DNA from: Kiritimatiellia bacterium
GTDB lineage: Bacteria > Verrucomicrobiota > Kiritimatiellia > JAAZAB01
Reading direction: 5' to 3'
Assembly (NCBI GenBank): GCA_028718125.1
Contig: JAQUMN010000005.1
Coordinates: forward strand, 3,784-67,783
DNA: 64,000 nt
A model generated the notes under the pieces. It had not been told where the DNA came from. It ran no database searches and saw nothing but the letters and a program-made list of their open reading frames with translations. Below, one piece after another: positions 5,288 to 64,000 of this stretch. Position numbers and translations under genes: made by a program. Numbering within the stretch: position 1 is the first letter of the stretch; each line of letters opens with the position of its first letter.

Positions 5288-5824
5288 TTGTACGTGGTCG
5301 CGGCGGCGGCATCTTTTCTATTGTTGAGCCGGAGCCCGGAGGGCAACGAGGAATTACGCAGGACACTGGTCGGAGAGATTTTATTGGTGTGTCCCAATGA
5401 GGTTCTGCGCACCTTCGCCTTGTTTGTGGCGGTCGGCACCGTGCATGTCGTCTTTCGCCGCCCCTTCCTGCTTCTCTCGTTCAACCCGGATCGCGGCCGT
5501 TCAGAAAGATTGCGTTTGTGGTTTTGGGATTTTCTTTTTTACGCGCTTTTCGGCGTTGTTGTAACCAGTTTTGTTCGAATGGGCGGCGTGTTACTGGTCT
5601 TCTCGTTCCTCATAATTCCAGCTGTGTGCGCCAATATTTTCGCAAAGTCGTTGAGGACGCAACTTGCCTTGGGATGGCTCGTGGCAACGTTGTCCAGCGT
5701 TGCAGGATTGTATGCTTCATATCGGCTTGATCTGCCGACCGGTGCGGCGATTGTCTGCGCGCTTGGGCTGGCCCTGTTACTGGCAGGAATCGGCCGGGCT
5801 ATAGACATTATGATCAAAAGGTGA
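5288..5824 (+). pseudogene. 5'-truncated metal ABC transporter permease fragment (ZnuB/MntB-like)
   Basis: 178-aa ORF. It matches only the C-terminal half of ZnuB-type permeases (IIPAVCANIFAKSLRTQLALGWLVATLSSVAGLYASY...). No N-terminal half and no partner ATPase/SBP genes are present. It sits at an apparent island boundary. Confidence 0.5.
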
Positions 5825-7331: not shown

Positions 7332-8077
7332 TTGAAAAGCCCTCACGAGTGGCTGAACAAGATTGACCTACTGGCCGGGACCTCGACCAACGGGATCGTT
7401 ATTCACAACAGAATTCAGCAACTCTCCCTTTTTTTACCTTCACCGCAAGATATAAAAACCCGGCCGATTTCACATTTAGACCAAAGTGTGAAACAGATGG
7501 CCGAAAATGAGGAAAATCCAAGCGGGAATCTTGCGGAAAACAGCCCGAATTCCGCAAATGTGAAATTATCTGTCGAAATGCCTCTTGGCAACATGCCTGC
7601 CGATACTGGGACACAGCCACACGAAGTAATATCTCTCACCGACACTCGTGTAAACGCACAGATGCCAAGCCCCGCTCCCGCGCAAAAGCGCAGAAAGCCG
7701 CTACGGCATTATGAACAATTCGGGGAGACGATCCGCTATCTCACGTGGGATGAGTGGCATAAACTTCTCGATTGCATTGAGGATTACCGGCACAAGCTGA
7801 TTATTTCAGAAATACGAAATACGTGAAAAAGGCCGGTCCGGATCGAGAATACGGGAATGACTCGAAGGGGCGAAAGCTCCAACTGATAACCTCACACTCG
7901 CTTCGCCACAGCCATATCATGCACTATATCCACATTCACAAATTGTCTTTGTCAATTGTCCAGAAGCAGGTCGGCCATCGAATGCTGAAAGCAACAAGCG
8001 TGTATTTGAACCCATCCGAAGAAGCGGTTGCCAATGCTTATAACGCTGTAACGAGAGACGATCACCCTTCAGTCTGA
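7332..8077 (+). pseudogene. degenerate tyrosine recombinase/integrase (frameshifted, internally deleted)
   Basis: Two overlapping ORFs (7332-7826 and 7823-8077) in different frames. The first ends ...LTWDEWHKLLDCIEDYRHKLIISEIRNT (catalytic-domain start, RISE-like box I). The second carries HSLRHSH (HxxR box II) and the ...VYLNPSE tyrosine region. N-terminal part is low-complexity and not integrase-like. Confidence 0.45.
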
Positions 8078-9982: not shown

Positions 9983-10027
9983 AAAGGGCGGTTTACCCGG
10001 TAAAACGGGCAACCGCCCTTTCTTTTT
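9983..10027 (+). terminator. rho-independent terminator
   Basis: GAAAGGGCGGTT..loop..AACCGCCCTTTC hairpin followed by a TTTTT run. Confidence 0.6.
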
Positions 10028-10046
10028 GCAGGAAAGGAATTGTGCC

Positions 10047-10706
10047 ATGAACAGTCAAGCAATGGCTTTGGATTTGTACCCATCGGAGTCCGTGCTGGAC
10101 GGGTGGATGCACTCGTTTGGGGTGTATTACCCCAGGTGGAATGCCATAAGACATCAGAACTCGTCGTGGAGCAAGGCGGTGATTCTGGCAAAGCGAAAAC
10201 ACGAGGCGGTTATAGAACGATTCGGAATAATCATCGCCAGCCATTTGTACCCCTTATTGGAATCGGGAGAGAACTACATCATTACTCCGGTCCCGGGTGA
10301 GCAGGAACGAGAACGCTGCCTATTCCAAGGATTGGAACGGTGCGTTACAGAGATATTGGCCGACTGCATCCATGTAGGACTGAAGGACAAGAATAGCGTA
10401 AAGGTCGAAAACCTGCTGGCTCAGGTCAAGCCAAAGGGCAAAAGACAGCATCAGTGCCTCAACATAGCGGAACGCACGGCCAACGTGCGAAATATCTATG
10501 CCGTTATGAACGGGGGACGGGTTTACGGCAATAACATCATCTTGGTGGATGACGTCATTACATCAGGCGCGACCATGGCCGAATGCGCCCGTATTCTTCG
10601 AGAATCAGGCGCTTCAGATGTTATGGGCGTGGCCCTGGCAAGAACAGTCCGTTTAAGTCAACCGGAAGTCAACCACATCGGCGCCATGAGGGACGGTGGC
10701 ATATGA
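10047..10706 (+). CDS. comF: ComF-family phosphoribosyltransferase-domain protein
   Basis: C-terminal PRTase signature IILVDDVITSGATMAECARIL. RBS AGGAAAGGAA precedes the ATG at 10047. Confidence 0.65.
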   Translation: MNSQAMALDLYPSESVLDGWMHSFGVYYPRWNAIRHQNSSWSKAVILAKRKHEAVIERFGIIIASHLYPLLESGENYIITPVPGEQERERCLFQGLERCVTEILADCIHVGLKDKNSVKVENLLAQVKPKGKRQHQCLNIAERTANVRNIYAVMNGGRVYGNNIILVDDVITSGATMAECARILRESGASDVMGVALARTVRLSQPEVNHIGAMRDGGI

Positions 10707-11833: not shown

Positions 11834-12292
11834 GTGCCCCTCATGGATAGAAATACGACAAGTCGGTTTCATGTCAGCCGAAGTTCCTGGGGCGCACAAG
11901 CGGAGCGGATGGTTCGTAGGGAATTGGATAAGTTACCGATGAATCGATTCATGGTGGCACATGACATTCGATTCAAATACGGAAATATCGATCACCTGGT
12001 GATACGGGATGATGGCCGGGTGTTTCTGATCGAGACCAAGTCATATCGCGGTGTCATAACAACCAACGGTTACGGCCTCTATGTCAACGGACAACCTCTT
12101 GAAAATAATCCTATTTGTCAAATCAACAGAACCATACGTTGGATACGAAACATAATGATACGAGCCTTTGGAACAGGATGCTGGGTGACCGCGTTACTTG
12201 TGTTTCCCGCTGCTGACGTGCGAGTTCGATGGCCGCAAAAGAATGTGTTGGTTACGCGATTCGAGGATCTGCGCTGGCTTTTATCATCATAG
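11834..12292 (+). CDS. NERD-domain (nuclease-related) protein
   Basis: GNIDHLVIRDDGRVFLIETKSYRG matches the NERD D...E.K core. Confidence 0.65.
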   Translation: MPLMDRNTTSRFHVSRSSWGAQAERMVRRELDKLPMNRFMVAHDIRFKYGNIDHLVIRDDGRVFLIETKSYRGVITTNGYGLYVNGQPLENNPICQINRTIRWIRNIMIRAFGTGCWVTALLVFPAADVRVRWPQKNVLVTRFEDLRWLLSS

Positions 12293-15200
12293 TCACGGGA
12301 TTACAACCGCCATGGACAGTATATCGTTTCGGAATCGGTCCAATTCTTTTCGCATAGCCCTATTCGTTATAATATCCCACGAAATGGGTTGTTTATTCCG
12401 GCGGCCGATTTGAGCCATAGCAGGTACAACACCAATCCTCACGCCCCACTCTGGATTATCCAGCAAAGCCTTGAGCCTCTGAATATCTTCTATCGCGCCA
12501 ATTTCTCCGAGGGCTCGCGCCGCGTGAAACAGCACAGCCTCATTCTTGTTGTCGGTTAAAGCGCGAATAATGTCAGGCCGGGCCGCAGAACCAGCGCTAA
12601 CCAGCACCGATAATGCGGCTATGCGAACATCGTTATCCGGATCGTTCAACATGGCGACGACTGTAGCCATTCCCTCTTCTGTTGTAATTCGCAATGATTG
12701 AACAACGGCTTTTCGAATTCGTGCAGACGGACTTCTGATCAATTTGATGAAATCATCTTTTGCATCGGCCTCATACTCCGTTAATGCGGCAATGGCCGCC
12801 AGACAAACGGCTTCACAAGGATCCTGTAATGCTTTCCGCAAAACGGGGACGGCGACCGATTCGTTCGATTCACCGAGCGCTCGCACGCATGATTCGCGGA
12901 CATCCTCGTTGGGGGAATTCATAAAAGTTGCCAAATAATCGGCTTCCCTTTTTTCGTGTCCGCTAATCCGCGCATGAGCCACCAAGGCTTCGACTTGGAC
13001 CTCAATCGATGTGGAGCATGTCAGTTTCTTTACGACTGAGGCAGCGGCTGGCGAACCAATAAAACCGAGCGCGTGGACGGCTTTTGCCGTAAGGGTTGCA
13101 TCCCTTGACGTTTTTATCTGCTGTAATAAACAGGGAACAGCCTTTTCAGAACGGCAGTAGCCCAATGCGCCAATAACAGCAACGAGAGTCCTCTTGTTGC
13201 CGGCTTTCATCATATTGATCAGAGGGGCAACCGCACCATTCCCTATCTTGCCGATGGCGGCGCTGGCCATTTCGGCCACATCCGGAAATGACAGCTTGAG
13301 TAACGGCAATAAGGCCGGGAGGTCATCGTGTGACGGATATTTCGCAACCATTTGCACGGCATCACGAAGGTCGGCTCTTTCTTTTGATTTCAGCAATGGA
13401 CGAATATAGGGTATAGCTTTAGGGCCGCTGTCCGCCAACAAAGCAATGGCCGTAAGTGACGTATCTTTATCGGGAGCAGTCATCAATCGAATCAGGATAT
13501 CGAGGGCCTTCTCCCCCCATGATCGTAGCAGGCCATAAATAAATTCTGGTTTAACCCATTCTTTTGGATGGGCAAATTCCTTTAATAGATATTCATAAAG
13601 GGCTGCGTGATATTGGGCCGGAATAATCGACGAGGGAACTTCATGTAATGCCCGTACGGCAATTTCAAGAGGCCTTAAGGCCAAATCTTCCGGCAAGCAA
13701 CCGAGAAGACGCGGAATATAGGATTTGATATCTTGGGATAAAATTCCTCCAAGCAATGCAAGGGGTTCCATCCACATCGGATCATACATGTTGGCATGGA
13801 CTATCGCAGCCCATTGTGGTTGCCGGGACAAAGCGCGAGCGACAAGGTATTCCTGAAAAGTAAGGTGGAGGAATGTAAACCAATCGCCCTGTTCGTCCAA
13901 CGGGACGATAATACCGTCTTTGCACAAGTAATTGACAATACTTGGATTTTCAAGACGGCGGAGCATGGCTTTGACAGGGTGGGATTCGTCCATGCGATTC
14001 ATGTAGCCATCGGTTGGATTCCAAAAATAATCCGTCAATTCGGACGAAGCGAGTGTCTCGTTGGGAAAATACTTGAATGCGATATCTTCCAGCAACCGTA
14101 AGTTACACTCAATGACCTCGCTATTGGACATTTGCCCCTTATCGAGCGCCGGCCATTGGCCGAGCATGCCTTTGATAATGACCTCATAGACCTCGCATCG
14201 TTGTGTTGGCAATCGGTCCGACTGTCGCCGGGACGAGTAAACCTTGCAGAGCAACGTGGCCAACAAAGGATTCTGGATCATGCCGGCGACAGATGGCCGC
14301 GCATCCAGGTCGGCCAATAACCGCTGGCTCAGATCAGGATTTGCAGCAAAGAAATTGCCGATAAATCGCGCTGTGTCCGGCTTACGAAAGGGGCATAATT
14401 GGAGTTCCTTGCGCTTCCCTCCAGGCGCACGGTCAAGCGATATGAGGTCGGATTTATAACCGATAACACGCGAACTAATAATCAATCTTGCTTTGACGTT
14501 GGCCGCAAAAACATTCAAGCGCTCAGCAACGCCCTCTTGATTCGATCGGACTTCATCCCATGCATCGAGGTGGAGGACGGAATGATAACGGCACGCTTTG
14601 TTGCCGTCATCCCATAACGAACGCCAGAGGACCTGGATCAATGGGGTCACGATCTTCTGAGTTTGGCACAAGGCAAACAGAATAGCGCCGCCGAAAAGTT
14701 CGTAGTCAGTAAGAAGGGAACCGGGAGCAATGACATCAGCCGACTTTAATAGATCGAGGATGTCATCGGCATGGTTGAGCGCCTCAGCGACCCGCGACAA
14801 GCGGACATAAACGGGAATGACAATAGAGGGCGGGTGTTTCTCGATCTTCGAACCCTGTAAGAGCTTTAATGTCGCTTGAGCGATGAGTTTGGAGTTGAAT
14901 TTTAACCATTCCGTTTTTCCGCTGCCCGGATCGCCCAAAAGAATACATTGATCCAACTGATCTACCCAGTCCTTGACTGGTTTACGATCTGGCGCAGTGC
15001 CTGAATCCCAGGCCGAATTGCGAAACGCGTAAATTTTACTGCGTAATTCCGGTTCCGCTTGAACAGACTCGTTCAGCCGGAATCGTTCTCGCGCCATGAT
15101 ATCCTCGGCCTGCAGAACCTGGCGAAATGGAACTGCGGACAGAGGAATGCGGAGCGCATCAAGCTTGAGATGCAGTCTCTCCAGCAAGGGAGATGCCGAG

Positions 15201-16003
15201 AGATGACGGTTAAGCCAGGCAAGGTAATCAACCAAGCCGGACGTTACATCTGGATATTTGTCATCGCGAACATCTGCCGATGGAGGGCGTTCCGGTTTAA
15301 CGGAGGCCCTTATTTCAGATAATAATTGCTTTAATCCAACAACTTGAACATGCGGCCTTCTCATTTCGATCTTTGCTTCCGTGAGTTTTAAGCGAAATGA
15401 CAGGCCTATATCGGACTTCGCCATCAAATAATTGCGGAAGTTTTCTCTTAAGAAAATCGCCTCTTTATCGGGAAGACGTGTCATTCCATCCGATTTATAG
15501 AACGGCATGCGATTTGACCCGAATCCACGGTGGGTCTGTTGTATCGGCATCCACATAACGCGAACAGCTTCTGCTGGAGCGCGGAAGGTGCTTCGTGTCT
15601 TATAACGTTTCAACGCGGCCAACAACTCGACATCGTCGGCAATATCACCGTAGGACACAACCTGGTCGTTTTTTGCCTGTATGTGTCGATCCAGTATCAG
15701 CGCCATAACGCCAATATGAAAGCGGCTGTCCTGATTCATCGCCTTGACGATTAGGCCTTCTTGCAAGGCTCTGCACTCAGGATAAGCATCGGTCTGAACC
15801 CGAAGCACTCCATTCGGCACATCAATGATCAGACGATTATTTGGCATCTGTACCACCCCGTACGGTTCAGAACGGTCCTCCGAGTTGCTCCCATAAAAAA
15901 AATAGCCGAGAATCGAGTCATAAAAAAGCAAATATTGTCGACATATCGACCAGTCAACGCAGAGCTGGACGCGAGGGCATAGTTGCCAAGCTCTGTGAGA
16001 CAA
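12293..16003 (-). CDS. NACHT/STAND NTPase with unknown N-terminal domain and C-terminal HEAT-repeat array (bNACHT/Avs-like antiviral candidate)
   Basis: Walker A ILLGDPGSGKTEWL and Walker B VLHLDAWDEV (NACHT style hhhhD-W-DE). The C-terminal 400 aa are tandem HEAT/PBS-lyase-like repeats (…VRIAALSVL…, …VRESCVRALGE…). A likely alternative start MPNNRLIID at about 15849 has a GGGGTGG RBS. Confidence 0.75.
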   Translation of the reverse strand: MSHRAWQLCPRVQLCVDWSICRQYLLFYDSILGYFFYGSNSEDRSEPYGVVQMPNNRLIIDVPNGVLRVQTDAYPECRALQEGLIVKAMNQDSRFHIGVMALILDRHIQAKNDQVVSYGDIADDVELLAALKRYKTRSTFRAPAEAVRVMWMPIQQTHRGFGSNRMPFYKSDGMTRLPDKEAIFLRENFRNYLMAKSDIGLSFRLKLTEAKIEMRRPHVQVVGLKQLLSEIRASVKPERPPSADVRDDKYPDVTSGLVDYLAWLNRHLSASPLLERLHLKLDALRIPLSAVPFRQVLQAEDIMARERFRLNESVQAEPELRSKIYAFRNSAWDSGTAPDRKPVKDWVDQLDQCILLGDPGSGKTEWLKFNSKLIAQATLKLLQGSKIEKHPPSIVIPVYVRLSRVAEALNHADDILDLLKSADVIAPGSLLTDYELFGGAILFALCQTQKIVTPLIQVLWRSLWDDGNKACRYHSVLHLDAWDEVRSNQEGVAERLNVFAANVKARLIISSRVIGYKSDLISLDRAPGGKRKELQLCPFRKPDTARFIGNFFAANPDLSQRLLADLDARPSVAGMIQNPLLATLLCKVYSSRRQSDRLPTQRCEVYEVIIKGMLGQWPALDKGQMSNSEVIECNLRLLEDIAFKYFPNETLASSELTDYFWNPTDGYMNRMDESHPVKAMLRRLENPSIVNYLCKDGIIVPLDEQGDWFTFLHLTFQEYLVARALSRQPQWAAIVHANMYDPMWMEPLALLGGILSQDIKSYIPRLLGCLPEDLALRPLEIAVRALHEVPSSIIPAQYHAALYEYLLKEFAHPKEWVKPEFIYGLLRSWGEKALDILIRLMTAPDKDTSLTAIALLADSGPKAIPYIRPLLKSKERADLRDAVQMVAKYPSHDDLPALLPLLKLSFPDVAEMASAAIGKIGNGAVAPLINMMKAGNKRTLVAVIGALGYCRSEKAVPCLLQQIKTSRDATLTAKAVHALGFIGSPAAASVVKKLTCSTSIEVQVEALVAHARISGHEKREADYLATFMNSPNEDVRESCVRALGESNESVAVPVLRKALQDPCEAVCLAAIAALTEYEADAKDDFIKLIRSPSARIRKAVVQSLRITTEEGMATVVAMLNDPDNDVRIAALSVLVSAGSAARPDIIRALTDNKNEAVLFHAARALGEIGAIEDIQRLKALLDNPEWGVRIGVVPAMAQIGRRNKQPISWDIITNRAMRKELDRFRNDILSMAVVIP

Positions 16004-16038
16004 GCTGTGATCGGTGATTATGGAATCGAAAGGGGGGC

Positions 16039-16437
16039 ATGATGGACGACTATTTCCACAGGATTTATGGGTTATACATTGATTGGGCCGGCAACATACC
16101 GGACAGCAAGCTGCTTACCATTATACGGCTAACCCTGTTATTCGCCGTGCCAACGGCGATCTATTACTGGGCATTTATCTCCGGACGACGCGGGGGATTT
16201 AGCCGGTTAGTGGCGGCGGTGCTTGCCGATGGACTGGTTCTCGCCGTTCCCATCCACGCGCCATACGACCTAACGGCCAGAGCCTGGATTTTTACCGGTT
16301 GTATCATGGCGTTGGCCTACAGCCCAGGGTCTCTTCCTTTTCTGGTTTATCGAGAGGCGGGGCGACAGCGTCGTCTGCGGCTGGGATTGTATGTCCTAAT
16401 GGCTGTGCTTCTTGTGGTTGGACTGCTGTGGAACTGA
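16039..16437 (+). CDS. small integral membrane protein (about 4 TM)
   Basis: Hydrophobic segments LLTIIRLTLLFAVPTAIYYWAFI, LVAAVLADGLVLAV and LYVLMAVLLVVGLLW. Confidence 0.45.
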   Translation: MMDDYFHRIYGLYIDWAGNIPDSKLLTIIRLTLLFAVPTAIYYWAFISGRRGGFSRLVAAVLADGLVLAVPIHAPYDLTARAWIFTGCIMALAYSPGSLPFLVYREAGRQRRLRLGLYVLMAVLLVVGLLWN

Positions 16438-16449
16438 TAGGGGATCGCC

Positions 16450-17088
16450 ATGTTTACGATAATTAAAACGTGGATACGCAAAGTCTGGCGGCAATTCATT
16501 GGCCAACCTGACATGCCGATTGTTATTCGTCCGATTATAGAAGGCGGCGATAACAGGCACTGGTGGCGCCATAACGCGAAGAATCACGATGCGGAGGAAG
16601 ATCATTTCCGGCGGATGGACCCGACAGAGGCTGCTCGGGAAATCTTCGCGCCCAGTCATGGAGAGGAAGATAGTTACGGGTTTACACGGGTTGGTCCCGA
16701 TGGAACTGTTCCCCATCAGGGCGAACAGTGGGACCGTGAACACAATGCCATGCGGGTGAGACGGCGTAAGTTCATGGTGATCACATGCTCACAAGGCGTT
16801 GTCCGTTCTGCAGAGGAAATCAACGGTATTTGCAGTGAATGTCATGGAACTGAAGCAACCGTTGTTCGCTGCTCTGTTTGTGGCGTCATCCTCTGCCAGC
16901 TTCATGCCTATGTCTTGGAGCATCCTACCGGGAATGTGGTTTATTGCCGGACACATCTCGAAGAAGCCCAGGACAACTGGGACACATGGGAAGCCTATGA
17001 CGTTCAACGGGGAGTGCGGCCCAGTCGGAGTGTGTATCCTGGGCGACCGCACGCAGTGGCGCGATATTTACAAAAACAAGGTGGCTGA
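16450..17088 (+). CDS. Cys-rich (zinc-ribbon) hypothetical protein
   Basis: C-terminal CSECHG...CSVCGVILC...CRTH. Lies 13 nt after the membrane protein gene and directly before the ATPase gene. Confidence 0.45.
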   Translation: MFTIIKTWIRKVWRQFIGQPDMPIVIRPIIEGGDNRHWWRHNAKNHDAEEDHFRRMDPTEAAREIFAPSHGEEDSYGFTRVGPDGTVPHQGEQWDREHNAMRVRRRKFMVITCSQGVVRSAEEINGICSECHGTEATVVRCSVCGVILCQLHAYVLEHPTGNVVYCRTHLEEAQDNWDTWEAYDVQRGVRPSRSVYPGRPHAVARYLQKQGG

Positions 17089-17089
17089 A

Positions 17090-18799
17090 ATGACTAACGA
17101 CAAACCAAACAAGCATACCCAGTTCGAGCGGGCGCTCATAGAACTGGAAATGGCCATGAAGTCGGGAAAGATCGCCGACCCACTAATTCAGGAGTACTGG
17201 CGCCGTGGACTGTCGCCTCTTGGCAATGGTGAGCATGGAGCGAAGGCACAGGCAATTCTGGAGAATCTGCTGACAGGACCCTCAATCCTGGCCGGTCTTG
17301 CATTGCCGTCCGAGCCGCCGGAGCCCGAAATAGATCCCAGGTTGTTGGTGTTCATCGGCCGGCGACGGGCCCTGCGTCGGATGACTGGGATTTTGAAGAA
17401 GCTACTGACTATGCACCTGCTTATTCAAGGACCCACGGGCTCTGGAAAAACAAATCTTATCTGGTTCATCATTCAACAGCTAATTGAAGCCGGCGTGAAA
17501 GTAATTTTCCACGATCACAAGAATGAGGGCCGTAAATTGCTGCGGCGATATTCCGGCGTCGTTGTTCTCCGAGTATCGGACTTCCGGGAAAACCTCCTTA
17601 AACCGGTGGGAGACCCGAAGCAGTATTTCTCGACATTCTGGAGCGAGTTTGCGCGCGCTTACAAAATCCGCCGCGAGACAGCCGTGAAACTCGTCGGTAT
17701 TTCTATGCGAGTTTTTGCCGGCTTGAAGCCTGATGAGCCCCATCCCAGTCTTTATGACTTTGCCTGCATGTTGCACAGGATGGCGAAAAGCGAAGGCGAC
17801 TCGACACTGGCAACTGCCGCCGTGGCATTGGAATCGCTGAATGCAACACTGGGAAAAGCGGCGACTGTCCGCGAAGGGTCTTGTGCCGATGATGTCTTCA
17901 ATGTGGTTGTGATGCAATGTCATGGGCAACCCTCTGAGTTTCTCGAATTCTTCATGGGTATCCGTTTATTCCGTAGCCATGTGAAGGCGATTGCCCATGG
18001 ACATACGGGTGAATTGACGTCCGTGGTCGTCAGCGACGAGGGGGGCATTGAATTCGCCAAAGAGTTCAGTGCTGAGGCCGGATCAGGATACATCACTCCG
18101 CAGAAACGGTTGATTACCCAATGCCGAAGTACGGGGACCGGTTTGGTAATCGCCACCCAAAGTGTCAGCGCGATTGACCCTGCCGTCATATCAAATATCG
18201 GATCGTTCGTATGTCTGAAGGCGCAGTCTGATTCCGATGTGCGTATCAGCGGTCGGCTTCTGGGTTTCTCCGATGAGCGATTTGACGAAGTTCGGAATAT
18301 TCCACGCTGGTCTGGCTTGCTCAAGACGCCGAGCCATTCGGGCGCTGTTCTTGTTGATATCCCTGAGGTGGACATGGGCGACTACATGAGCGACGAGGAA
18401 CTGGATAGATTAAATCGCACGGCGTTTGAGCGTTTGAACACGCAATCGATTTTTGCGCCGGTCCATCAGGACGCCGGAGCGCCAATATCCTACAGGGACA
18501 TCCTCGGCGAGACGACGCCACCTGCTCCGGCAGCATCAGACTCAGATCAATTATTCGACTTCCGGGCCGAACACACGAGCTTCATTCGCGAAATTATTGC
18601 ACACCCTGATGCCAGCGTCGTGGAGCATTACGTGAACCTTGGGTGGAGTGCCGGACGGGGTAATCGTGTGAAAACCGATCTCATGGACAATGGCATCATT
18701 GAGTCACAGCGCCAGACTTCGCGCAATGGCCGGCCTATCGAACAGCTTGTACTGACGGAAAAAGGGAGGGCGCTTTTCGATGACGCATCAAAAGCATAG
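17090..18799 (+). CDS. P-loop ATPase of the HerA/FtsK/VirD4-VirB4 clade
   Basis: Walker A HLLIQGPTGSGKTNLI followed by VIFHDHKNEG (the DpxGE box characteristic of HerA/FtsK/TraG-like ATPases); later GLVIATQSVSAIDP. The track ORF begins at 16799, but the ATG at 17090 directly follows the upstream stop and avoids overlap. Confidence 0.65.
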   Translation: MTNDKPNKHTQFERALIELEMAMKSGKIADPLIQEYWRRGLSPLGNGEHGAKAQAILENLLTGPSILAGLALPSEPPEPEIDPRLLVFIGRRRALRRMTGILKKLLTMHLLIQGPTGSGKTNLIWFIIQQLIEAGVKVIFHDHKNEGRKLLRRYSGVVVLRVSDFRENLLKPVGDPKQYFSTFWSEFARAYKIRRETAVKLVGISMRVFAGLKPDEPHPSLYDFACMLHRMAKSEGDSTLATAAVALESLNATLGKAATVREGSCADDVFNVVVMQCHGQPSEFLEFFMGIRLFRSHVKAIAHGHTGELTSVVVSDEGGIEFAKEFSAEAGSGYITPQKRLITQCRSTGTGLVIATQSVSAIDPAVISNIGSFVCLKAQSDSDVRISGRLLGFSDERFDEVRNIPRWSGLLKTPSHSGAVLVDIPEVDMGDYMSDEELDRLNRTAFERLNTQSIFAPVHQDAGAPISYRDILGETTPPAPAASDSDQLFDFRAEHTSFIREIIAHPDASVVEHYVNLGWSAGRGNRVKTDLMDNGIIESQRQTSRNGRPIEQLVLTEKGRALFDDASKA

Positions 18800-19572: not shown

Positions 19573-20205
19573 ATGATACGGGGGATGACGGCTGTGAGTG
19601 ACGATTTTGACGCTCTTGAATATCTCAAAACACATCCTGATTGGTTCAAAAAGCCTGTACTGATAGGTATGAATCAGAATAAGGATTCGGAAGACGATTC
19701 GATTCAGGCGCGGGCAGACCGTTTCCTCCGCCGTCATCGCCCTGTCATTAATATTCAGCCGCCGATTACAATTCGGCAGTTTCGGCATATTGAAGTGCCC
19801 AATAACTGGCTGCCTTCTGGCAAGGTTAATCAAAGGCAAAATACAGCCTCTTCAATAGTACTAAAAGCCGTACGGCCATATGCCCGCAGATCTCGTACTT
19901 CAAGCTATTGGGAGGATTCAGGATGGGAACATAGAGGCACAAACCTTATCGGATACTATAAGGCTGGGGATAATTCGTATAGGGGAGCTGTAGAACTGAC
20001 GGACAGTAGCTATCGGCCCATGAAGTTCTACATCTATGATCCGCCCAGTGTCATCCTAGATGGGCCACATGGGGCATGTTATCATTGGCAAGGACTGTCG
20101 GGACTAAATAAGTACTGGATTCATTTTAGCGAGGGACCGGCAAACATAGACAGTGGAATAATTCAAATCGAGCGCTCTCTATCGGAAGCACTGGGAGTTG
20201 AATAA
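19573..20205 (+). CDS. E2-like ubiquitin-conjugating-fold protein (BilB-like)
   Basis: Position between the Ubl and JAB genes. Candidate catalytic Cys in ...LDGPHGACYHWQG. Assignment is by operon context plus a weak motif. Confidence 0.45.
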   Translation: MIRGMTAVSDDFDALEYLKTHPDWFKKPVLIGMNQNKDSEDDSIQARADRFLRRHRPVINIQPPITIRQFRHIEVPNNWLPSGKVNQRQNTASSIVLKAVRPYARRSRTSSYWEDSGWEHRGTNLIGYYKAGDNSYRGAVELTDSSYRPMKFYIYDPPSVILDGPHGACYHWQGLSGLNKYWIHFSEGPANIDSGIIQIERSLSEALGVE

Positions 20206-20225
20206 TCAAAAAAGGAAATACGAAC

Positions 20226-20915
20226 ATGGACAACGCAAAACCAAATAAAGACATGGGTATCATCTATGACTTTCTGGCAAAAACAGCTAACAGATTGGAG
20301 GCCAAATTACTGGATGCTTGCCGACAAAGTGATGAACCCATGGCGTTGAGTATTCTTACTGAATTGCTCGATGTTTCAAACGTTAAACGTGTATCGGAAA
20401 GCGCCATAGCGGATATGCCGAACGAGATCGCGATCCCGACATATATGCTGAGCACGCTCACGATTCAGGAAGCCTGCGAAGTTCTAACGAAAACCATGGA
20501 TGAAGATCTGCGGTTTGCGACAGGGCTGGTTGTTGCACCTATGAAATATGCCGTAACGCGGCTGTTGCAGTTCGAGCTGAAGAGAAAGTCTGCTGTAGCG
20601 GCAGAGGGCGATCAGCAGGCAGTGGCCCGTCTTCTGATCGGTTTGCATAATCACGATCATAAGCTGTTCATGACTTGGCACAGTCATCCTGGTTCCGGTG
20701 CGAATTCGACTATGCCATCGCCAATCGATATGGATTTCCATCGGCGACTGGAGGTCGGGAACTACCCGGTGATTGGGGGTATTGTCAATAGGCAGGGATA
20801 CGTGCGTTTCTTCTCGTACAAACGGCCGTTCAGGGTTTCGATCTATGGAAAAGGAATGGAGGTAGTAAATGAACAACACAATGTTTTTAAACTCGATACG
20901 ATCAGTGCGGTTTAA
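20226..20915 (+). CDS. JAB/JAMM metalloprotease, deubiquitinase-like (BilC-like)
   Basis: JAMM motif WHSHPGSG...S..D (HSHP...PSPIDMD) and an upstream Glu. Confidence 0.7.
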   Translation: MDNAKPNKDMGIIYDFLAKTANRLEAKLLDACRQSDEPMALSILTELLDVSNVKRVSESAIADMPNEIAIPTYMLSTLTIQEACEVLTKTMDEDLRFATGLVVAPMKYAVTRLLQFELKRKSAVAAEGDQQAVARLLIGLHNHDHKLFMTWHSHPGSGANSTMPSPIDMDFHRRLEVGNYPVIGGIVNRQGYVRFFSYKRPFRVSIYGKGMEVVNEQHNVFKLDTISAV

Positions 20916-21678
20916 TTCCAACGGTTTTCATCCTGAGAAATTGGAGGAAGGCCAGAAATCTGCAACGGCCAGCCAGGAGCAGTTGCCGGGATTCAATCAG
21001 CAGAACCTTCGGAACGCCCGGATTCAGATGATTGGATGTGGCGGCATTGGCGGTTCCATTTTGGACAACCTTGTGCGGAAGGGATGTGGACACGTTGATG
21101 TTTACGATGGTGACGATGTTGAACTTGGCAATCTCGGACGGCAGAAGTTTTTCCCGTCCGATGTCGGGAAAAACAAAGCGCTCTGCGGTGCGCGAAACGC
21201 CATGCCCCATGCTTCCTGGCCGACCGAGATTGTTGCTCATCCCGTGTGGTTTGAGGATGCGGTGAACCATGGCATGGTCGGCGGCGCGAGTGCCGCGATT
21301 GTGGGGCCTGACAGGGATAGCACAAGGGTCTATTCCAGCAGGTACTTCTATAAAATGTGCCCGGTACTCTTTGTGGGGATCGGTACACGCGCCGAACATG
21401 GATACGTGTTTGTGCAGAAGCCTGGCGAGGCATGTTTTGCATGTCTTTTTCCTGATGCCACGACAAACAAACGTGCACCGTGTCCTGGCACACCGGCGAT
21501 GATTGACATCCTGCTGGTTACCGCCGGGCTCGTGCTTACGGCATTGGATGCTCTCCTGATGCCGGGGCGAAAGATCAATTGGAATTATTGGGATATCTAT
21601 CCGTCTGGAGCCATTTTAACGCAGCCATTGACTATTGAACGGCGGAAGGATTGCCCGATATGCGGGAAGTTCGGTTAA
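20869..21678 (+). CDS. E1-like ThiF/MoeB-family adenylyltransferase (BilD-like)
   Basis: IQMIGCGGIGGSILDNLVRKGCGHVDVYDGDDVELGNLGRQ Rossmann/ThiF motif. Zn-site CFAC...CPIC. GGAGG RBS. Overlaps the JAB gene by 47 nt. Confidence 0.8.
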   Translation: MNNTMFLNSIRSVRFNSNGFHPEKLEEGQKSATASQEQLPGFNQQNLRNARIQMIGCGGIGGSILDNLVRKGCGHVDVYDGDDVELGNLGRQKFFPSDVGKNKALCGARNAMPHASWPTEIVAHPVWFEDAVNHGMVGGASAAIVGPDRDSTRVYSSRYFYKMCPVLFVGIGTRAEHGYVFVQKPGEACFACLFPDATTNKRAPCPGTPAMIDILLVTAGLVLTALDALLMPGRKINWNYWDIYPSGAILTQPLTIERRKDCPICGKFG

Positions 21679-22067: not shown

Positions 22068-22451
22068 GTGGGCACATTATCATCAATCAATGTCCTGTTG
22101 GTCGTAATAATCGGCGTTGTTACCGCGATAGTCAGTTGGCGGGTGTTGTGCCAGGCACTGAAGTTTAAGAACCCGGTCCTAGGGATATGTGTTGGCGCTC
22201 TGACAGGTTTGGGTTTGGCAACGAATATAGGAGGAACTATGTCTGCACTCTTGATTCCCTACGCGGCGCTCGGGATTGCGATTATCTTGATGTTTCTTAT
22301 GGCCCCGTTTCTGAACCGAAAGAAGGACAAGGAAAAGAAGTCGTTATCGCCTGAGCCCACAAATAACGTGTGGAAGCCGGAAGACCCTTGGGAGCGGGAA
22401 ATTCGTCTGAATGGAAAAATGGCTGGCAAATTCAAGGCGAGAAAGCGGTAA
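22068..22451 (+). CDS. small membrane protein with Lys-rich C-terminal tail
   Basis: GTG start. 3 TM segments, then ...NRKKDKEKK.... Confidence 0.4.
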   Translation: MGTLSSINVLLVVIIGVVTAIVSWRVLCQALKFKNPVLGICVGALTGLGLATNIGGTMSALLIPYAALGIAIILMFLMAPFLNRKKDKEKKSLSPEPTNNVWKPEDPWEREIRLNGKMAGKFKARKR

Positions 22452-22491
22452 CGGGAATGGATGCTGTTTTCAAACAGGAGTTGACCCCGCA

Positions 22492-22977
22492 ATGGAAATG
22501 GATGTCGAGCATATGTCAAGGGATGCCAGGATGTGGCGGATTGGCCACATCCTGTCGAAAGGTATTTCCCTTATGCTCGCCAAGGAAATGGAGGAACGAG
22601 AAGCGCTGGCACGAAATGCACTAGCCACGCAATTCGGCGAAAACAACCGCGAAGGACAAACGACAAACTTGTGTGATGACAGCAAGGCGATCCTGGACTA
22701 TCTCAGGCGGGTGGGTCCAGCTTCACCGACTAATATCTGGCGCTACACGGGAATATCAAGGACGACCGTGTTCCGAAGGTTGAAAGAGCTGACTAAAGTT
22801 GGCTTATTGCAGAAGACGGGAAGGGATAAATCTGTGCAATATATGACGATCGGATTTGGCAATAATGATCCTAAACCCGATAATCCTTCGGCAATAAATG
22901 ACGGGAAGAGCGATTCCGGCATTAGTGCTGTGGATGGATCTGTTGAAATGCAGGATTTTACTCTAAACAAGAGATAA
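22492..22977 (+). CDS. winged-helix transcriptional regulator
   Basis: ...DYLRRVGPASPTNIWRYTGISRTTVFRRLKELTKVGLLQKTGRDKSVQY is a wHTH. Start chosen at the ATG at 22492 to avoid overlap. Confidence 0.45.
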   Translation: MEMDVEHMSRDARMWRIGHILSKGISLMLAKEMEEREALARNALATQFGENNREGQTTNLCDDSKAILDYLRRVGPASPTNIWRYTGISRTTVFRRLKELTKVGLLQKTGRDKSVQYMTIGFGNNDPKPDNPSAINDGKSDSGISAVDGSVEMQDFTLNKR

Positions 22978-25945: not shown

Positions 25946-26286
25946 GACGATGGAGATAAGGTCATAGTTCGTATCGGGCAGCGGCCTGCGGAGCCAACCC
26001 TTTGGAAATACGAACTTCGGGTCTCATCTTCACTTCCCTATAATATTCAAGTATTTTCCGGGGAATCCTTAATCAAGTACCTGCGAAAAGTTCGTATGTC
26101 GCACTTGATGGTGCAAACAGATAACGAACATTATCGGTATCATTTGTTCTTCAGCGATCATAAATCACTTCCGTCGTTTTCCCTTCTGTTTTGTCATATC
26201 TCCATACCCCGACTGTCAGTCATCGTGGGATCCAACGAAAATAATGCCACTGGCAAGTGATCATAAGATGAGGCATATTGGTCGTC

Positions 26287-28749
26287 ATGGAAGCGAACGA
26301 CCCAAAGTCTCTCATATTACGAAATAAGATCGATACAGTTCGGCGACAATTGTACGAATTTGAATCGCAGACATTGTTGCTGAAGGATCTACTCCGACAA
26401 CTTGAAAAGCAGCAAGCCGCACGGTCAGGCCCATCAGTATCTTCCCCCACTGCGTTGGTTCAGTCACCGCTTCACTGGACGGATGACAACGTGCGATTAT
26501 TCGCCTCGCTTTTTCGTGGTCGAGAGGATGTGTTCCCACGGCGATGGGAAAGCCGAGCTGGAAAAAGCGGATATTCACCCGTTTGCAGGAATGAATGGAA
26601 GCGCAATATCTGCCCAAAGCCAAAAGGAAAGTGTCATGATTGTCTCCATAAAGATTACGTGCCGCTGACTCTGGATCACATCCGCCAGCATCTCTCCGGG
26701 CGCGTGACCATCGGCGTCTATCCTCTGTTGCAAAACGAGACATGCCATTTTCTAGCGGTGGATTTCGATAAAAGCACATGGAGGGAGGATGTTACCGCAT
26801 TTATCCGGGTATGTAGCCAGCACAAAATAGCCTATGCTATGGAACGATCCCGGTCAGGCCATGGCGCACACGTTTGGTTTTTCTTCGAGCATCCTCTGCC
26901 CGCGCGGTTGGCCCGGCGTTTTGGTTGTGCACTATTGACAGAAACCATGGATACTCGTCATCAGGTCGGTTTAGATTCCTATGACCGGCTGTTTCCCAGC
27001 CAGGACACCATGCCTAAGGGCCAATTCGGCAATCTGATAGCACTTCCATTGCAAGCGGAGCCGGCTCGTTCTGGCAACAGTCTGTTTGTCGACGACCGGT
27101 TTATCCCGTTTGCCGATCAATGGGCATTTCTGAATACGATTGGACGTTTGCCCGAAACCGAAGTTCGGGCAATCGAGGAAGACGCGGCGCGACGTGGGCG
27201 CATTTTGGGTGTCCGGGCAGTGATCAGCGAAGATGACGAACAGCCCTGGAACACACCGCCTTCAGGCCAAAAACAGGTGCCTATAACCGGTCCGTTGCCA
27301 TCAACAATCGAGATCGTGTATGCCAATATGCTGTTTATACCGAAGGCGGTACTACCATCCGGCCTGATTAATCGGCTCATCCGGCTGGCCGCCATTCAAA
27401 ATCCGGAATTTTACCGAGCACAAGCCATGCGACAATCCACGTTCGGAAAACCCCGGATTATTTCGTGCGCGGAGGTATTGGAAAAATACCTCGCGTTACC
27501 AAGGGCGTGTTTAGATGACGTGCAATTGCTCCTAACCGAATTGGGTATTCACACTGTTTTATCAGACAAAAGATGTGCCGGGAAACCATTGCACGTCCAA
27601 TTCCGGGGGACGTTATCACCGGAACAAGAACAGGCGGTTAGCGCAGTTTGCGACCATGACTTTGGTGTGATCTCTGCGCCGCCGGCTTTCGGAAAAACCG
27701 TAGTCGGGGCTAAAATCATTGCCAATCATGGCGTTAACACGCTGATTCTGGTCTGTCGGCAACAGTTGTTGGACCAGTGGCGTCAACGCCTGGCCACGTT
27801 TTTAGACCTCCCGATTGAATCTATCGGGTTGATCGGGGGCGGAAAACGGAAACCAACAGGATTGATCGATGTGGCGATGATCCAATCGTTGATACGACAG
27901 GGCATTGTCGCTGATACGGTGGCAACGTATGGGCATGTTATTCTCGACGAATGTCATCACGGCTCAGCGGTGACCCACGAGTTGATCCTTCGCCAAGCGC
28001 ATGCCCGATACATTACGGGATTGACGGCGACACCCACACGGAAAGACGGACATCATCCCATCGTCTTTATGCAATGCGGCCCCATCCGTTACGCGTTAAG
28101 CGGTAAACAGTCCGCCCAACACGGACTTTTCTCCCATCGTGTCGTCACTCGACTGACCGGGACGGACACGATTGGCCCTGAAGAGCAGATTCAAATGCAG
28201 GACATCTACTCGGCCATTATACATGACGAGAACCGGACAAGTCTGATCGTCAATGACATTCGCGCGTCCATCACCAAGGGGAAAACTCCGTTAGTGCTGA
28301 CCGAACGCCGCGAACATTTGGATACTCTGGCAAAGCGCCTTACACCAGTTACCCGGCATCTAATCATCCTTCATGGGAACATGGGGATCAAACAGCGTCG
28401 GGAAATTATGGCCAGACTAGCCGCCGTACCAGAGAACGAATCTCGCATTCTGCTTTCCACCGGTAGATACATCGGTGAAGGCTTCGATGACTCACGGCTG
28501 GACTGCCTGTTTCTGACAATGCCCATCTCCTGGAAAGGTACGCTTCAGCAGTACGCCGGCCGCCTGCATCGCCTTCATCATGCCAAGCGTGAAGTCATCA
28601 TCTATGATTATGTGGATGCCAATATTCCGATTGCTCGCCGCATGTTCGAGAAGCGAAAGAAGGGGTATGCCGCTATGGGGTATGAACTGGAGGACAGTAA
28701 AATTCAGGCAGAGATACCGCTTCCGAATGACCCCTTATTGAATTTGTAG
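26287..28749 (+). CDS. primase-polymerase (AEP-like) domain fused to SF2 DEAD/DEAH helicase
   Basis: N-terminal half has a Cys/His cluster and ...VYPLLQNETCHFLAVDFDK...GHGAHVWFFF (prim-pol style). C-terminal half has helicase motifs I (ISAPPAFGKTVVG), II (VILDECHHGS), III (GLTATPTRKDG) and VI (QQYAGRLHR). The track start at 26278 is TTG; the ATG at 26287 is preferred. Confidence 0.7.
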   Translation: MEANDPKSLILRNKIDTVRRQLYEFESQTLLLKDLLRQLEKQQAARSGPSVSSPTALVQSPLHWTDDNVRLFASLFRGREDVFPRRWESRAGKSGYSPVCRNEWKRNICPKPKGKCHDCLHKDYVPLTLDHIRQHLSGRVTIGVYPLLQNETCHFLAVDFDKSTWREDVTAFIRVCSQHKIAYAMERSRSGHGAHVWFFFEHPLPARLARRFGCALLTETMDTRHQVGLDSYDRLFPSQDTMPKGQFGNLIALPLQAEPARSGNSLFVDDRFIPFADQWAFLNTIGRLPETEVRAIEEDAARRGRILGVRAVISEDDEQPWNTPPSGQKQVPITGPLPSTIEIVYANMLFIPKAVLPSGLINRLIRLAAIQNPEFYRAQAMRQSTFGKPRIISCAEVLEKYLALPRACLDDVQLLLTELGIHTVLSDKRCAGKPLHVQFRGTLSPEQEQAVSAVCDHDFGVISAPPAFGKTVVGAKIIANHGVNTLILVCRQQLLDQWRQRLATFLDLPIESIGLIGGGKRKPTGLIDVAMIQSLIRQGIVADTVATYGHVILDECHHGSAVTHELILRQAHARYITGLTATPTRKDGHHPIVFMQCGPIRYALSGKQSAQHGLFSHRVVTRLTGTDTIGPEEQIQMQDIYSAIIHDENRTSLIVNDIRASITKGKTPLVLTERREHLDTLAKRLTPVTRHLIILHGNMGIKQRREIMARLAAVPENESRILLSTGRYIGEGFDDSRLDCLFLTMPISWKGTLQQYAGRLHRLHHAKREVIIYDYVDANIPIARRMFEKRKKGYAAMGYELEDSKIQAEIPLPNDPLLNL

Positions 28750-28767
28750 TCTGAATATGGAGACTGA

Positions 28768-29568
28768 TTATCCAACGTCATCCAGGCGGGACAGGACATC
28801 TTGTTTCAAGAGATCGTATGCCTCCTGATGGGAATACGCAATTCCGTCACGTAATAGGTCGTCGGTATCCTGAAGGAACTCTGGTCTGAGGATCTTGCTC
28901 TCCATGTTCAATAGGTATTCCCTGGCCGTCACTCGCAATCTTAATGCCGACATATACCGGTGGAAGCATTGGATGATGCGCATCGGTTTCGCCTGTCCTT
29001 GCGTCAATCCGAGCCACAAATCGAAAAGGTCCCGTCCTTTCCTGCGCTGATACAAGGCCCGAAGCTTAGTGCCCAGTAATTCTTCCAGCCGGAAGATCGG
29101 GATTTCGCAACGTCCATTGAACCATCGTGATTTCACGCTGAAAGGACATTTTTCCAGACCAAGAACTGAAAAATGCTCTCGCGAATTGATCTCCACTTTC
29201 AAACGTAATGGCGTGATCGGCAGCGATTCGGATTGCATCCTGAAGATCAGGTTGACAACTCCCGGTCCCTGTTTCCGCCGTGGTTTTCCCAAAAACGGCA
29301 TCAAGACTTCGCGAACGGCATCGAAAATCGGTCCGATAGGACCGGGAACCATCTGAACAAGGTCAATATCTTCCGAGTAACGCGCCGGCGGCGAGAGGCG
29401 GATTTTATGCAGAGCCGTACCGCCGCGAAACGCCAGCTGCGCTGATAATACCGGATGGGCAAAAAGATTAACCAGGACACGGCTGATGATCAGGTCCTGC
29501 TCGACCATGTTCTCGTATTTCCACGGCGCAAAGGCCTTCCATTCAGTAATGAACGGAATCGGAATCAC
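28768..29568 (-). CDS. abiEii: AbiEii-family nucleotidyltransferase toxin (DUF1814)
   Basis: RGGTALHKI...YSEDIDL NTase motif (GT..., DID). 266 aa. 4-nt overlap with the upstream antitoxin. Confidence 0.8.
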   Translation of the reverse strand: MIPIPFITEWKAFAPWKYENMVEQDLIISRVLVNLFAHPVLSAQLAFRGGTALHKIRLSPPARYSEDIDLVQMVPGPIGPIFDAVREVLMPFLGKPRRKQGPGVVNLIFRMQSESLPITPLRLKVEINSREHFSVLGLEKCPFSVKSRWFNGRCEIPIFRLEELLGTKLRALYQRRKGRDLFDLWLGLTQGQAKPMRIIQCFHRYMSALRLRVTAREYLLNMESKILRPEFLQDTDDLLRDGIAYSHQEAYDLLKQDVLSRLDDVG

Positions 29569-30583: not shown

Positions 30584-30997
30584 TTATCGCGGGCATTGTT
30601 GGCGTAGTTGCCGGAATGCGGCGAGTCTGGCAGTGATGCTTTTTCTAGCGAGAAGGCTTCTGAGATTCCGTTCGGAAAAGTGGCGGATGTCTTCCCTGAC
30701 AGTCAAAGAAGTAACATAGGAAAGAATCTCTTTCGGCAGATCGAGGAGATTCATAATCTGCGTCACCCGTGCGCGTGAAACCCCTGTATTTCGAGCTATT
30801 CCAGCCATATTGAGCGTATTGTCGTCGGCTAACATCTGACGCCATGCCAAGGCGAGATGAACCGGATGCTGAGCAGGTTTTGCGGGTGCCACGTCGTGAT
30901 ACATATTGTCGTGTAAGTCATCCCCGTAGCCCTCAGGATATGAAATCGGGTGCACAATGAACGGCTTGGCGCCCCACCTGGAAAAGGGGATGCCCAT
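30584..30997 (-). CDS. ParB-HTH-like small DNA-binding protein (paralog B)
   Basis: MGIPFSRWGAKPFIVHP N-terminus and GIARNTGVSRARVTQIMNLLDLPKEILSYV HTH. About 55% identical to paralog A. The first 80-90 nt, including the 5'UTR, are about 90% identical at DNA level to copy A. Confidence 0.5.
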   Translation of the reverse strand: MGIPFSRWGAKPFIVHPISYPEGYGDDLHDNMYHDVAPAKPAQHPVHLALAWRQMLADDNTLNMAGIARNTGVSRARVTQIMNLLDLPKEILSYVTSLTVREDIRHFSERNLRSLLARKSITARLAAFRQLRQQCPR

Positions 30998-63999: not shown

Positions 64000-64000
64000 T

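Follow-up and report, generated by a model that had tools for sequence, protein, structure and literature searches.

Bacterial NACHT (bNACHT) proteins combine a central NACHT module with a C-terminal repeat arm and a variable N-terminal output position; their N-terminal domains swap between close relatives, and they are found in mobile or variable DNA (10.1101/2022.07.19.500537; Kaur et al. 2020, PMC7159879). Kibby et al. (10.1101/2022.07.19.500537) listed HEAT among the sensors of the 'antigen-receptor type' bacterial NACHT proteins, and the architecture of NACHT plus HEAT is already described for bacteria. In this study we analysed a stretch of 64,000 nucleotides (hereafter the window) from a Kiritimatiellia bacterium (assembly GCA_028718125.1, contig JAQUMN010000005.1, positions 3,784 to 67,783) and a gene on its minus strand that encodes a NACHT module followed by HEAT repeats. 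We consider it probable, though far from certain, that the product is a bNACHT-type conflict sensor, that is, an NLR-related STAND NTPase whose gene is a fast-diverging cargo of an integrative mobile element, occupies a fixed slot in it and is repressed via a putative operator. The core finding is ordinary, because sensors of the NACHT-HEAT type are to be expected among the NLR-like proteins of bacteria. What is new at the level of sequence is the family of the N-terminal domain (hereafter N-dom), the shuffling of N-dom over two NACHT lineages in one slot, and the associated putative operator.

The protein shares with the bNACHT proteins all the features listed above. However, its NACHT part has diverged below the Pfam threshold and beyond all PADLOC models, its N-dom matches no effector or adaptor on the list, and an N-terminal domain is lacking in most of its family. 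The preliminary description of this DNA had seen in the gene both a bacterial NACHT antiviral sensor and an Avs-like protein. The first comparison is upheld by the NACHT module, by the C-terminal HEAT arm of a listed sensor type (10.1101/2022.07.19.500537) and by the position of the gene in horizontally acquired DNA among conflict genes. The second is not: PADLOC returned HEAT matches only and no Avs or NACHT match, and Pfam detected no Avs effector domain. Avs proteins follow the same logic in that they join an output domain at the N-terminus with a STAND NTPase and a sensor of helical repeats for a phage protein, but the query falls into a different STAND clade and has no recognisable nuclease, protease or other Avs effector. 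Membership in EruA (NF058535, 'NACHT domain-containing antiphage protein') was ruled out as well. The match to this NCBIfam model was partial and confined to the NACHT core (39.6 bits, E 1.9e-10, profile positions 69-204 of 1318, 136 aligned), far under the equivalog cut-off of 1000 bits.

We take it as established that the protein belongs to the NACHT clade of the STAND P-loop NTPases, in view of invariant family motifs, the matches of the family profile to NLRs and the NLR fold matches of a structural model. In alignment A1, which holds the query and its eight closest relatives (nine family members), the Walker A residues G305, D306, P307, G308, G310 and K311, the Walker B residues D428, D431 and E432, the sensor residues S459 and R460, H661 of the winged-helix domain (WHD) and the NPLL motif GM.QNPLLATLL were all invariant. 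Residues are numbered on the 1184-amino-acid (aa) protein, and 52 has to be added to obtain the numbering of the 1236-aa open reading frame (ORF) of the preliminary description. The assignment to NACHT-type NTPases, which had been based there on the motifs GDPGSGKT and LHLDAWDE, was thus upheld by the conservation of both motifs as well as by the family profile and the fold. When the query was used alone, it scored 13.8 bits against the Pfam NACHT family PF05729 (cut-off 26.7), NPHP3_N gave an E value of 1e-3, and no match was found among the PDB sequences. A profile of 16 sequences covering residues 176-730 matched NLRC4 (3e-11), NOD2 (2e-9), NLRP3 (4e-9) and NLRP1 (1e-5) in PDB; the top of this list was filled by NACHT NLRs, other P-loop proteins occurred only at E above 5e-4, and the WHD motif of the query family was aligned with FFHKSFQEY of NLRC4. 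Moreover, PF05729 was carried by 10 of the 12 weakest listed homologs (P0012-P0025 bar two), nine of them aligning at BLASTP E values of 8e-22 to 5e-8. The AlphaFold2 (AF2) model of residues 176-730 had a pLDDT of 79.5 and a pTM of 0.81, and the top 38 Foldseek matches of this model in PDB were all NACHT NLRs, with NOD2 (4.4e-10), NLRC4 (5.3e-10) and NLRP3 at the top (range 4e-10 to 1e-8) and ORC/Cdc6 lower. The best profile and fold matches were therefore the animal NLRs NLRC4, NOD2 and NLRP3 over the nucleotide-binding domain (NBD), helical domain 1 (HD1), WHD and helical domain 2 (HD2), including the WHD histidine motif F-x-H-x-[ST]-F-Q-E-[YF]. However, the animal proteins have a leucine-rich repeat (LRR) arm where the query has HEAT, there is no CARD or PYD in the query, and identity is only about 11-14% at a TM-score of about 0.45 (multi-domain superposition).

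In the C-terminal part, Pfam recognised HEAT_2 with 148 bits (cut-off 27.7; E 9e-44), HEAT with 55.8, HEAT_PBS with 32, and also HEAT_EZ. A repeat hidden Markov model (HMM) delimited six canonical units of 31 aa between residues 978 and 1161; before them, about six degenerate units keep the register back to about residue 795. The HEAT/PBS-lyase repeats that had been proposed previously are thus present, but their number is about 12 and not about nine. The stop codon of the gene abuts the stop of a convergent NERD gene.

The minus-strand ORF 12293..16003 is open throughout from a TTG codon, and in this respect the 1236-aa gene described before is genuine and uninterrupted; its start, however, shifts. 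The true start is likely the ATG at 15847, which yields 1184 aa, because the GGGGTGG sequence lies 5 nt upstream, the protein MDD5677000.1 is identical from that methionine onwards, and the homologs of loci L086 and L001 begin at the aligned position. MDD5677000.1 is annotated by NCBI as 'MAG: HEAT repeat domain-containing protein [Kiritimatiellae bacterium]' and lies there on a contig of 134.8 kb. The 52 codons preceding the ATG are most likely a non-coding 5' region. From the N-terminus to the C-terminus the protein consists of N-dom (about 100 aa), a variable linker, a helical pre-NACHT region, the NACHT module, about 12 HEAT repeats and a short C-terminal helix.

The N-terminal region of about 300 aa, which the preliminary description had left as a single domain of unknown type, proved to be composed of three parts. 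About 125 aa of it are pre-NACHT helices that recur in each of the nine family members of the alignment; seven of these proteins begin there, and the helices were modelled by AF2 with a pLDDT of up to about 90. In the same way, the alignments of the database relatives with the query begin at about residue 180-220, where most of these proteins start. Only the first approximately 100 aa remain as a distinct part that matches no known family. This N-dom was seen in four proteins, i.e., the query and the proteins of loci L001, L086 and L088. Apart from the query, a phmmer search with residues 1-215 against 1.84 billion representatives retrieved only two repeat proteins whose similarity was spurious, one a BspA-like LRR protein and the other an Ig-repeat protein of a fish, because the similarity between N-dom copies (23-31% over about 100 aa) is too weak for significance in so large a library. 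The idea that N-dom is a pure orphan was dropped after tblastn on the neighbour loci had exposed weak homologs and one homolog behind a truncated gene call. The latter is the locus of P0002 (L001; JGI 3300034058 Ga0373119_2081672), in which the called gene of 1105 aa is short by 104 codons at its 5' end. The tblastn match lay right upstream of, and in frame with, the called start; the true ORF from the ATG at 7130 encodes 1209 aa, and N-dom is encoded by the missing part (L001 7130-7441). The truncated call accounts for the absence of this homolog from the protein-database searches. Over 98 aa, the N-terminus of this protein shares 31% identity with the query (pairwise E 4e-11). The loci L086 and L088 were reached via a neighbouring ATPase gene. 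The former encodes a full-length homolog of 1178 aa with 34.5% identity to the query, whereas the 967-aa protein of the latter represents another, distantly related NACHT-like lineage and has the first 75-100 or so residues in common with the query (E 1.6e-6). When N-dom HMMs were built with one member left out at a time, each omitted member was the sole extra match among 13,362 ORFs (E 1e-16 to 7e-8).

The N-dom copies are mildly to strongly basic, with isoelectric points (pI) of 7.9-10.5. N-dom had no match in Pfam, PHROGs, PDB, plasmids or IMG/VR viral contigs, and the N-dom profiles (alignments A5 and A7) found nothing in a word-indexed protein database, metagenome contigs, viral contigs, PDB or plasmids; with the A7 profile, the weakest of the four members scores about 38 bits. 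Neither residues 1-316 nor any of the four N-dom sequences matched a helix-turn-helix (HTH) family at E values up to 10. The AF2 model of residues 1-300 reached a pLDDT of 45 and was unusable for N-dom (31-47), and the resemblance of this model to LAGLIDADG proteins was noise (best Foldseek E 0.65). A catalytic role, which the conservation of D9, H44, D68, D71 and D72 in two sequences had raised, was abandoned, since L086 does not retain H44, D68 and D71, and the role of a homotypic adaptor of the EAD type was ruled out, as no element contains a second copy of N-dom. Because N-dom is found on two NACHT lineages, it is a candidate for a new output module of NLR-type signalling.

Immediately 5' of the ribosome-binding site (RBS) or the start codon, all four N-dom genes carry a tandem of GAACNGTTC palindromes. 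On the mRNA strand the copy in the window reads GGACCGTTC-T-GAACCGTAC (15860-15878). The copy in L001 is perfect, GAACCGTTC-T-GAACGGTTC (L001 7091-7109), and those of L086 and L088 read GAACGGTT-GAACCGTT-ATGT-ACGGTTA and GAACCGTTC-ACT-GAACGGAC, respectively. Tandems with at most one mismatch per unit occurred six times in the 1.45 Mb of fetched DNA, twice at the 5' ends of N-dom genes and four times elsewhere. The motif was found neither upstream of the NACHT gene of L089 nor upstream of the family genes without N-dom. An RNA element was considered and rejected: there was no Rfam match, the fold z-scores ranged from +0.9 to -1.3, and the copy in the window is unable to form a hairpin. As the units are retained as direct and inverted repeats alike and fold no better than shuffled sequence, an RNA explanation is unlikely, and we infer that the tandem is a putative protein-binding operator. 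The known LexA/SOS boxes, GAAC-N4-GTTC and TGTTC-N4-GAACA, have a spacing which the motif does not seem to match. Strict repression of an NLR-like gene has a precedent in LypABC, a CARD-NLR-like system which is toxic if misregulated and is kept off by the CdxB repressor bound at the promoter (PMC13236601). LypABC is likewise tied to a mobile or domesticated element, but it comprises three proteins with peptidase effectors and a known repressor, whereas here there is a single gene and an operator proposed from sequence conservation.

The NACHT gene sits in a region of about 29 kb with a GC content of 0.47-0.53, while the host DNA to the right of it has 0.65. On one side of the gene lie RadC, a ShosT/PsyrT-like phosphoribosyltransferase (PRTase), DUF6573 and NERD genes; on the other side there are genes for a transmembrane (TM) protein, a zinc-ribbon-like protein and a HerA/FtsK-type ATPase, followed by those for a protein of about 210 aa, JAB, ThiF/E1, a winged HTH (wHTH) protein and Ank proteins and, farther out, AEP-TOTE/PrimPol-helicase, AbiEii/AbiEi and a ParB-HTH protein. 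The order NERD / slot / TM-Zn-ATPase-...-JAB-ThiF-...-wHTH is common to loci L085-L090, whose proteins are 41-94% identical, and it reveals a low-GC mobile element that, as far as these sequences go, is found in Kiritimatiellia and relatives. A NACHT-type gene fills the slot in four of the five closely related elements and in the distant element L001 (Table 1), where the ATPase is only 25% identical and the TM-Zn-ATPase order is kept, divergent from a NACHT-HEAT gene with N-dom. All four N-dom genes occupy this slot. Across the elements with this slot the sensor arm and even the NACHT lineage differ, and in L088 N-dom occurs on the second lineage. The preliminary description had placed the gene inside a defense island. 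This holds insofar as the DNA is low-GC and acquired and contains AbiEi/AbiEii, AEP-TOTE/PrimPol-helicase, JAB with E1, the ShosT/PsyrT-like PRTase, NERD and the HerA/mad8-like ATPase; however, the RadC, DUF6573, NERD, TM-Zn-ATPase, JAB and ThiF genes are conserved across the loci as element backbone and are not independent defence cargo. When the window is compared with L086, identity is 51-73% for the backbone genes, except for the gene of the ~210-aa protein (41%), but 34.5% for the whole NACHT-HEAT gene and 23% for its N-dom part. A mobile element with a diversifying receptor locus of the immune type would be expected to show such faster divergence of the NACHT-HEAT gene.

The family is rare, since among 185,579 species-representative genomes no close member was found and the best match had 25% identity. 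Its members without N-dom were located near pAgo, a caspase-HerA fusion, transposases, a serine recombinase, ECF-sigma-like genes and ThiF genes. We favour the interpretation as a conflict gene on a mobile element because an island with GC 0.50 in a host with GC 0.65 carries AbiE, PrimPol-helicase, E1/JAB and a ShosT-like PRTase, and because the relatives occur near pAgo, caspase-HerA, transposases and recombinases. Anything beyond an intact NACHT and HEAT architecture on a mobile element is inferred from the NLR/STAND paradigm, i.e., from NLRC4, NOD2, bNACHT and Avs. In the resting state, the HEAT solenoid would hold the NACHT module in a closed form with ADP bound. Once a foreign protein, or a host protein that has been perturbed, binds to the solenoid, nucleotide exchange and oligomerisation would follow, by which the N-terminal domains would be gathered to deliver the output, most likely growth arrest or cell death by which a phage or a competing element would be stopped. 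The GAACNGTTC tandem next to the RBS would serve as the operator that keeps this potentially toxic gene repressed. Several observations weigh against the proposed conflict sensor: the single-sequence Pfam NACHT score lies below threshold and the NACHT part escapes the PADLOC models; neither an effector fold nor a catalytic signature can be recognised in N-dom; an N-terminal domain is missing altogether from most family members; some relatives adjoin housekeeping genes; and the sample is small, with four N-dom proteins and about 10 family members.

Among the alternatives, the one that survives best, although we regard it as unlikely, is that the protein is a STAND-type transcriptional switch of the element. 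N-dom would recognise the GAACNGTTC tandem within the promoter region that the divergent genes share, and, in response to a signal perceived by the HEAT arm, NACHT oligomerisation would alter the expression of the gene itself and of the operon of the TM-Zn-HerA-like ATPase. Motif and N-dom occur together in four of four genes, and both are missing from L089, which has the same element type and slot and a NACHT protein without N-dom, as well as from the family members devoid of N-dom. However, the motif adjoins the coding DNA of N-dom, and linkage alone would give the same co-occurrence, which therefore cannot tell binding by N-dom from binding by another repressor. The motif lies in an intergenic region, in the window 191 bp long (15848-16038), common with the divergent operon or with a sigma-like gene; yet the divergent operon is kept in L085 and L089, where the motif is missing. 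The basic character of N-dom would suit a DNA-binding domain, and DNA-binding N-terminal domains are listed among the bNACHT 'adaptors', but N-dom matches neither an HTH nor another DNA-binding family, and the backbone encodes other candidate binders, namely a MarR/IclR-type wHTH protein, whose gene lies at 22411-22977, and the wHTH tail of the ATPase. That the elements hold no second N-dom copy, so that N-dom is not a homotypic adaptor, speaks for a switch as well. In its logic the protein would then resemble MalT, GutR and AfsR/SARP, which are also STAND NTPases with a repeat sensor and would also be alike in their DNA-binding output if N-dom binds GAACNGTTC; however, they belong to the MalT or AP-ATPase clades and use a LuxR or SARP HTH, whereas the query is of the NACHT clade. 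The more specific proposal that N-dom is an undescribed sequence-specific DNA-binding output domain for GAACNGTTC, and the protein an NLR-like ligand-gated switch controlling element genes (the TM-Zn-HerA-type ATPase operon and itself) instead of a suicide effector, is in our opinion distinctly unlikely. If it were true, the elements would swap sensor arms, and even NACHT lineages, behind a constant cassette of operator and N-dom.

It is also possible, though we give it little credence, that N-dom is an adaptor which couples the NACHT sensor to the TM, zinc-ribbon and HerA/FtsK-type ATPase proteins, the effector being the membrane or ATPase module. The three-gene cluster adjoins all four STAND genes with N-dom, and its order and divergent orientation hold in the distant L001 despite 23-26% identity (16039-18799 in the window, 3157-5871 in L001). 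Furthermore, HerA-type ATPases are partners of effectors in known defence systems, as reflected by the PADLOC HerA and mad8 matches. However, the cluster is present without a NACHT gene in L085 and with a NACHT protein lacking N-dom in L089, and is therefore independent of N-dom. It co-varies with JAB, ThiF, RadC and NERD as backbone, and the wHTH-tailed ATPase, whose PHROGs matches were terminase and FtsK families, resembles an element DNA translocase. The cluster may serve for DNA translocation in a family of integrative elements of Kiritimatiellia and relatives that is as yet uncharacterised. In L085-L090 it is 50-92% identical, and homologs of the ATPase with 63-92% identity are present on several metagenome contigs; the ATPase profile found nothing in the metagenome, and the search for the cluster as a known plasmid or virus module gave no PLSDB match and one weak P-loop match in IMG/VR.

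Finally, a housekeeping HEAT scaffold or PBS-lyase/NblB-like protein with a degenerate P-loop and no part in conflict is very improbable: the NCBI annotation mentions only HEAT repeats, and NblB was the best NCBIfam match (72.6 bits, E 3e-20), but its cut-off is 300 and the CpcE/F and CpeY models gave 19-26 bits against cut-offs of 220-600, which indicates generic repeat similarity only. This explanation is contradicted by the matches to NACHT in profile and fold. The whole family retains the NTPase motifs intact and without variation, the gene is rare, patchy and located on a low-GC mobile element, and Kiritimatiellia are not known to have phycobilisomes.

Table 1. Features of the NACHT-HEAT gene and its slot. 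Coordinates are those of the window; residues are those of the 1184-aa protein.
Feature	Coordinates	Strand	Remarks
Corrected coding sequence of the NACHT-HEAT protein	12293..15847	-	1184 aa plus stop; identical to MDD5677000.1 (start likely)
N-dom	15533..15847	-	residues 1-105; motifs hxIDV, FH(L/I)G(V/I)(L/M)ALIL, DV..L, A.R..W (alignment A7)
Variable linker	15323..15532	-	residues 106-175; poorly conserved among the four N-dom proteins (A7); AF2 pLDDT below 50
Helical pre-NACHT region	14978..15322	-	residues 176-290; Y208, L209, PLL..R, LD.LR.PL
NACHT module (NBD-HD1-WHD-HD2)	13568..14977	-	residues 291 to ~760
Walker A GDPGSGKT	14912-14935	-	LGDPGSGKT at residues 304-312
Walker B LHLDAWDE	14552-14575	-	VLHLDAWDE, D428/D431/E432
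Sensor SR		-	residues 459-460; alignment A1
GMIQNPLLATLL		-	residues 522-532; within NACHT module
WHD motif FLHLTFQEYL	13844-13873	-	conserved His is H661
About 12 HEAT/PBS-lyase-type repeats of ~31 aa each	12365..13465	-	residues 795-1161; Pfam HEAT_2, HEAT, HEAT_PBS; repeat HMM
Conserved C-terminal helix and stop codon	12293..12364	-	residues 1162-1184; A1 with P0002, L086 homolog
Ribosome-binding site GGGGTGG	15852..15858	-	5 nt upstream of ATG 15847
Operator-like tandem of the 9-bp palindrome GAACNGTTC	15860..15878	.	plus strand GTACGGTTC-A-GAACGGTCC; directly 5' of RBS
52-codon in-frame extension to TTG	15848..16003	-	holds RBS and conserved motif; no counterpart in homologs
NERD-domain gene	11834..12292	+	Pfam NERD 1e-18; bounds slot, convergent with NACHT gene; 49-51% identity in L085, L086, L089
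Divergent backbone operon (three genes)	16039..18799	+	bounds other side of slot
132-aa multi-TM protein	16039-16437	+	first gene of divergent operon
212-aa Cys-rich zinc-ribbon-like protein	16450-17088	+	second gene of divergent operon
569-aa HerA/FtsK-type ATPase, C-terminal wHTH	17090-18799	+	Pfam DUF87; PADLOC mad8 2.8e-16
Slot content, window			NACHT-HEAT with N-dom
Slot content, L086			NACHT-HEAT with N-dom
Slot content, L088			different NACHT lineage with N-dom
Slot content, L089			L088-type NACHT lineage without N-dom; Pfam NACHT 6.6e-11
Slot content, L085			multi-TM M48-like protein and DUF932

The genes for the protein of about 210 aa without a family match, the JAB peptidase and the ThiF/E1-like protein (PADLOC E1-E2 models 4e-15) form a triad at 19573-21678 which is present in all of L085-L090, and the ~210-aa protein is its fastest-diverging member (41-62% identity). 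The triad looks like a ubiquitin-like conjugation module (E2?/JAB/E1) of the element backbone. The region 26278-30383 encodes a fusion of AEP-TOTE/PrimPol with an SF2 helicase (Pfam 2e-98; PADLOC PrimPol 6e-93) and then the toxin-antitoxin pair AbiEii/AbiEi, just past which lies the ParB-HTH gene (30584-31051). These genes are probably cargo, since they are absent from the related elements examined. A link of the NACHT gene to a TOTE system (TPR-OB-TBP-Effector; PMC12458937) was ruled out, as the AEP-helicase is 10 kb away and absent from related elements. The PRTase-like protein between RadC and DUF6573 (10026-10706) matched the PADLOC toxins PsyrT (6e-14) and ShosT (2e-13), and no obvious ShosA/PsyrA partner was identified for it.

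With respect to the boundaries of the island, no attachment-site (att) repeats or integrase bounding it were found, nor is it flanked by direct repeats of at least 14 bp. Close to the left end of the low-GC DNA there are an ABC-3 permease ORF (5288-5824), which covers only profile positions 94-254 of 258 and is apparently truncated at its N-terminus, and a 164-aa ORF (7332-7826) with a faint match to an integrase C-terminus (PHROG E 0.06); both are possibly insertion remnants. On the host side of the right boundary, in DNA with GC 0.65, a gene on the minus strand (34621-43146) encodes a 2841-aa GH94-type protein similar to cyclic beta-1,2-glucan synthase (supersandwich 8e-167, catalytic domain 8e-120). 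A second copy of the ATPase with 82% identity (MDD5677083.1, P0030) is located outside the window on the same 134.8-kb contig, about 83 genes from the NACHT gene, and by this similarity the genome seems to carry two related elements. In addition, a tRNA-Asn gene at 57162-57236 is followed by a fall in GC from about 0.59 to about 0.50 (57162-64000), which suggests a second horizontally acquired island inserted at tRNA-Asn.

In the loci of the relatives, the family members P0006 and P0004, both without N-dom, adjoin genes for ThiF-family proteins of about 400 aa (L002 8425-9684 and L084 12590-13796) which are 41% identical to each other, and ECF-sigma-like genes lie at most two genes away from three members, P0002, P0007 and P0009. 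This neighbourhood could be a recurrent association or chance.

N-dom adds to the STAND proteins a compact domain family of about 100 aa, so far seen at their N-terminus only. The slot of the element may be regarded as a natural experiment in receptor modularity, in which an antisense NACHT gene is almost always present while the sensor arm, the lineage and the N-terminal domain are exchanged. The tandem palindrome, in turn, would provide a handle on how potentially toxic sensors are silenced, or on DNA binding by the sensor itself.

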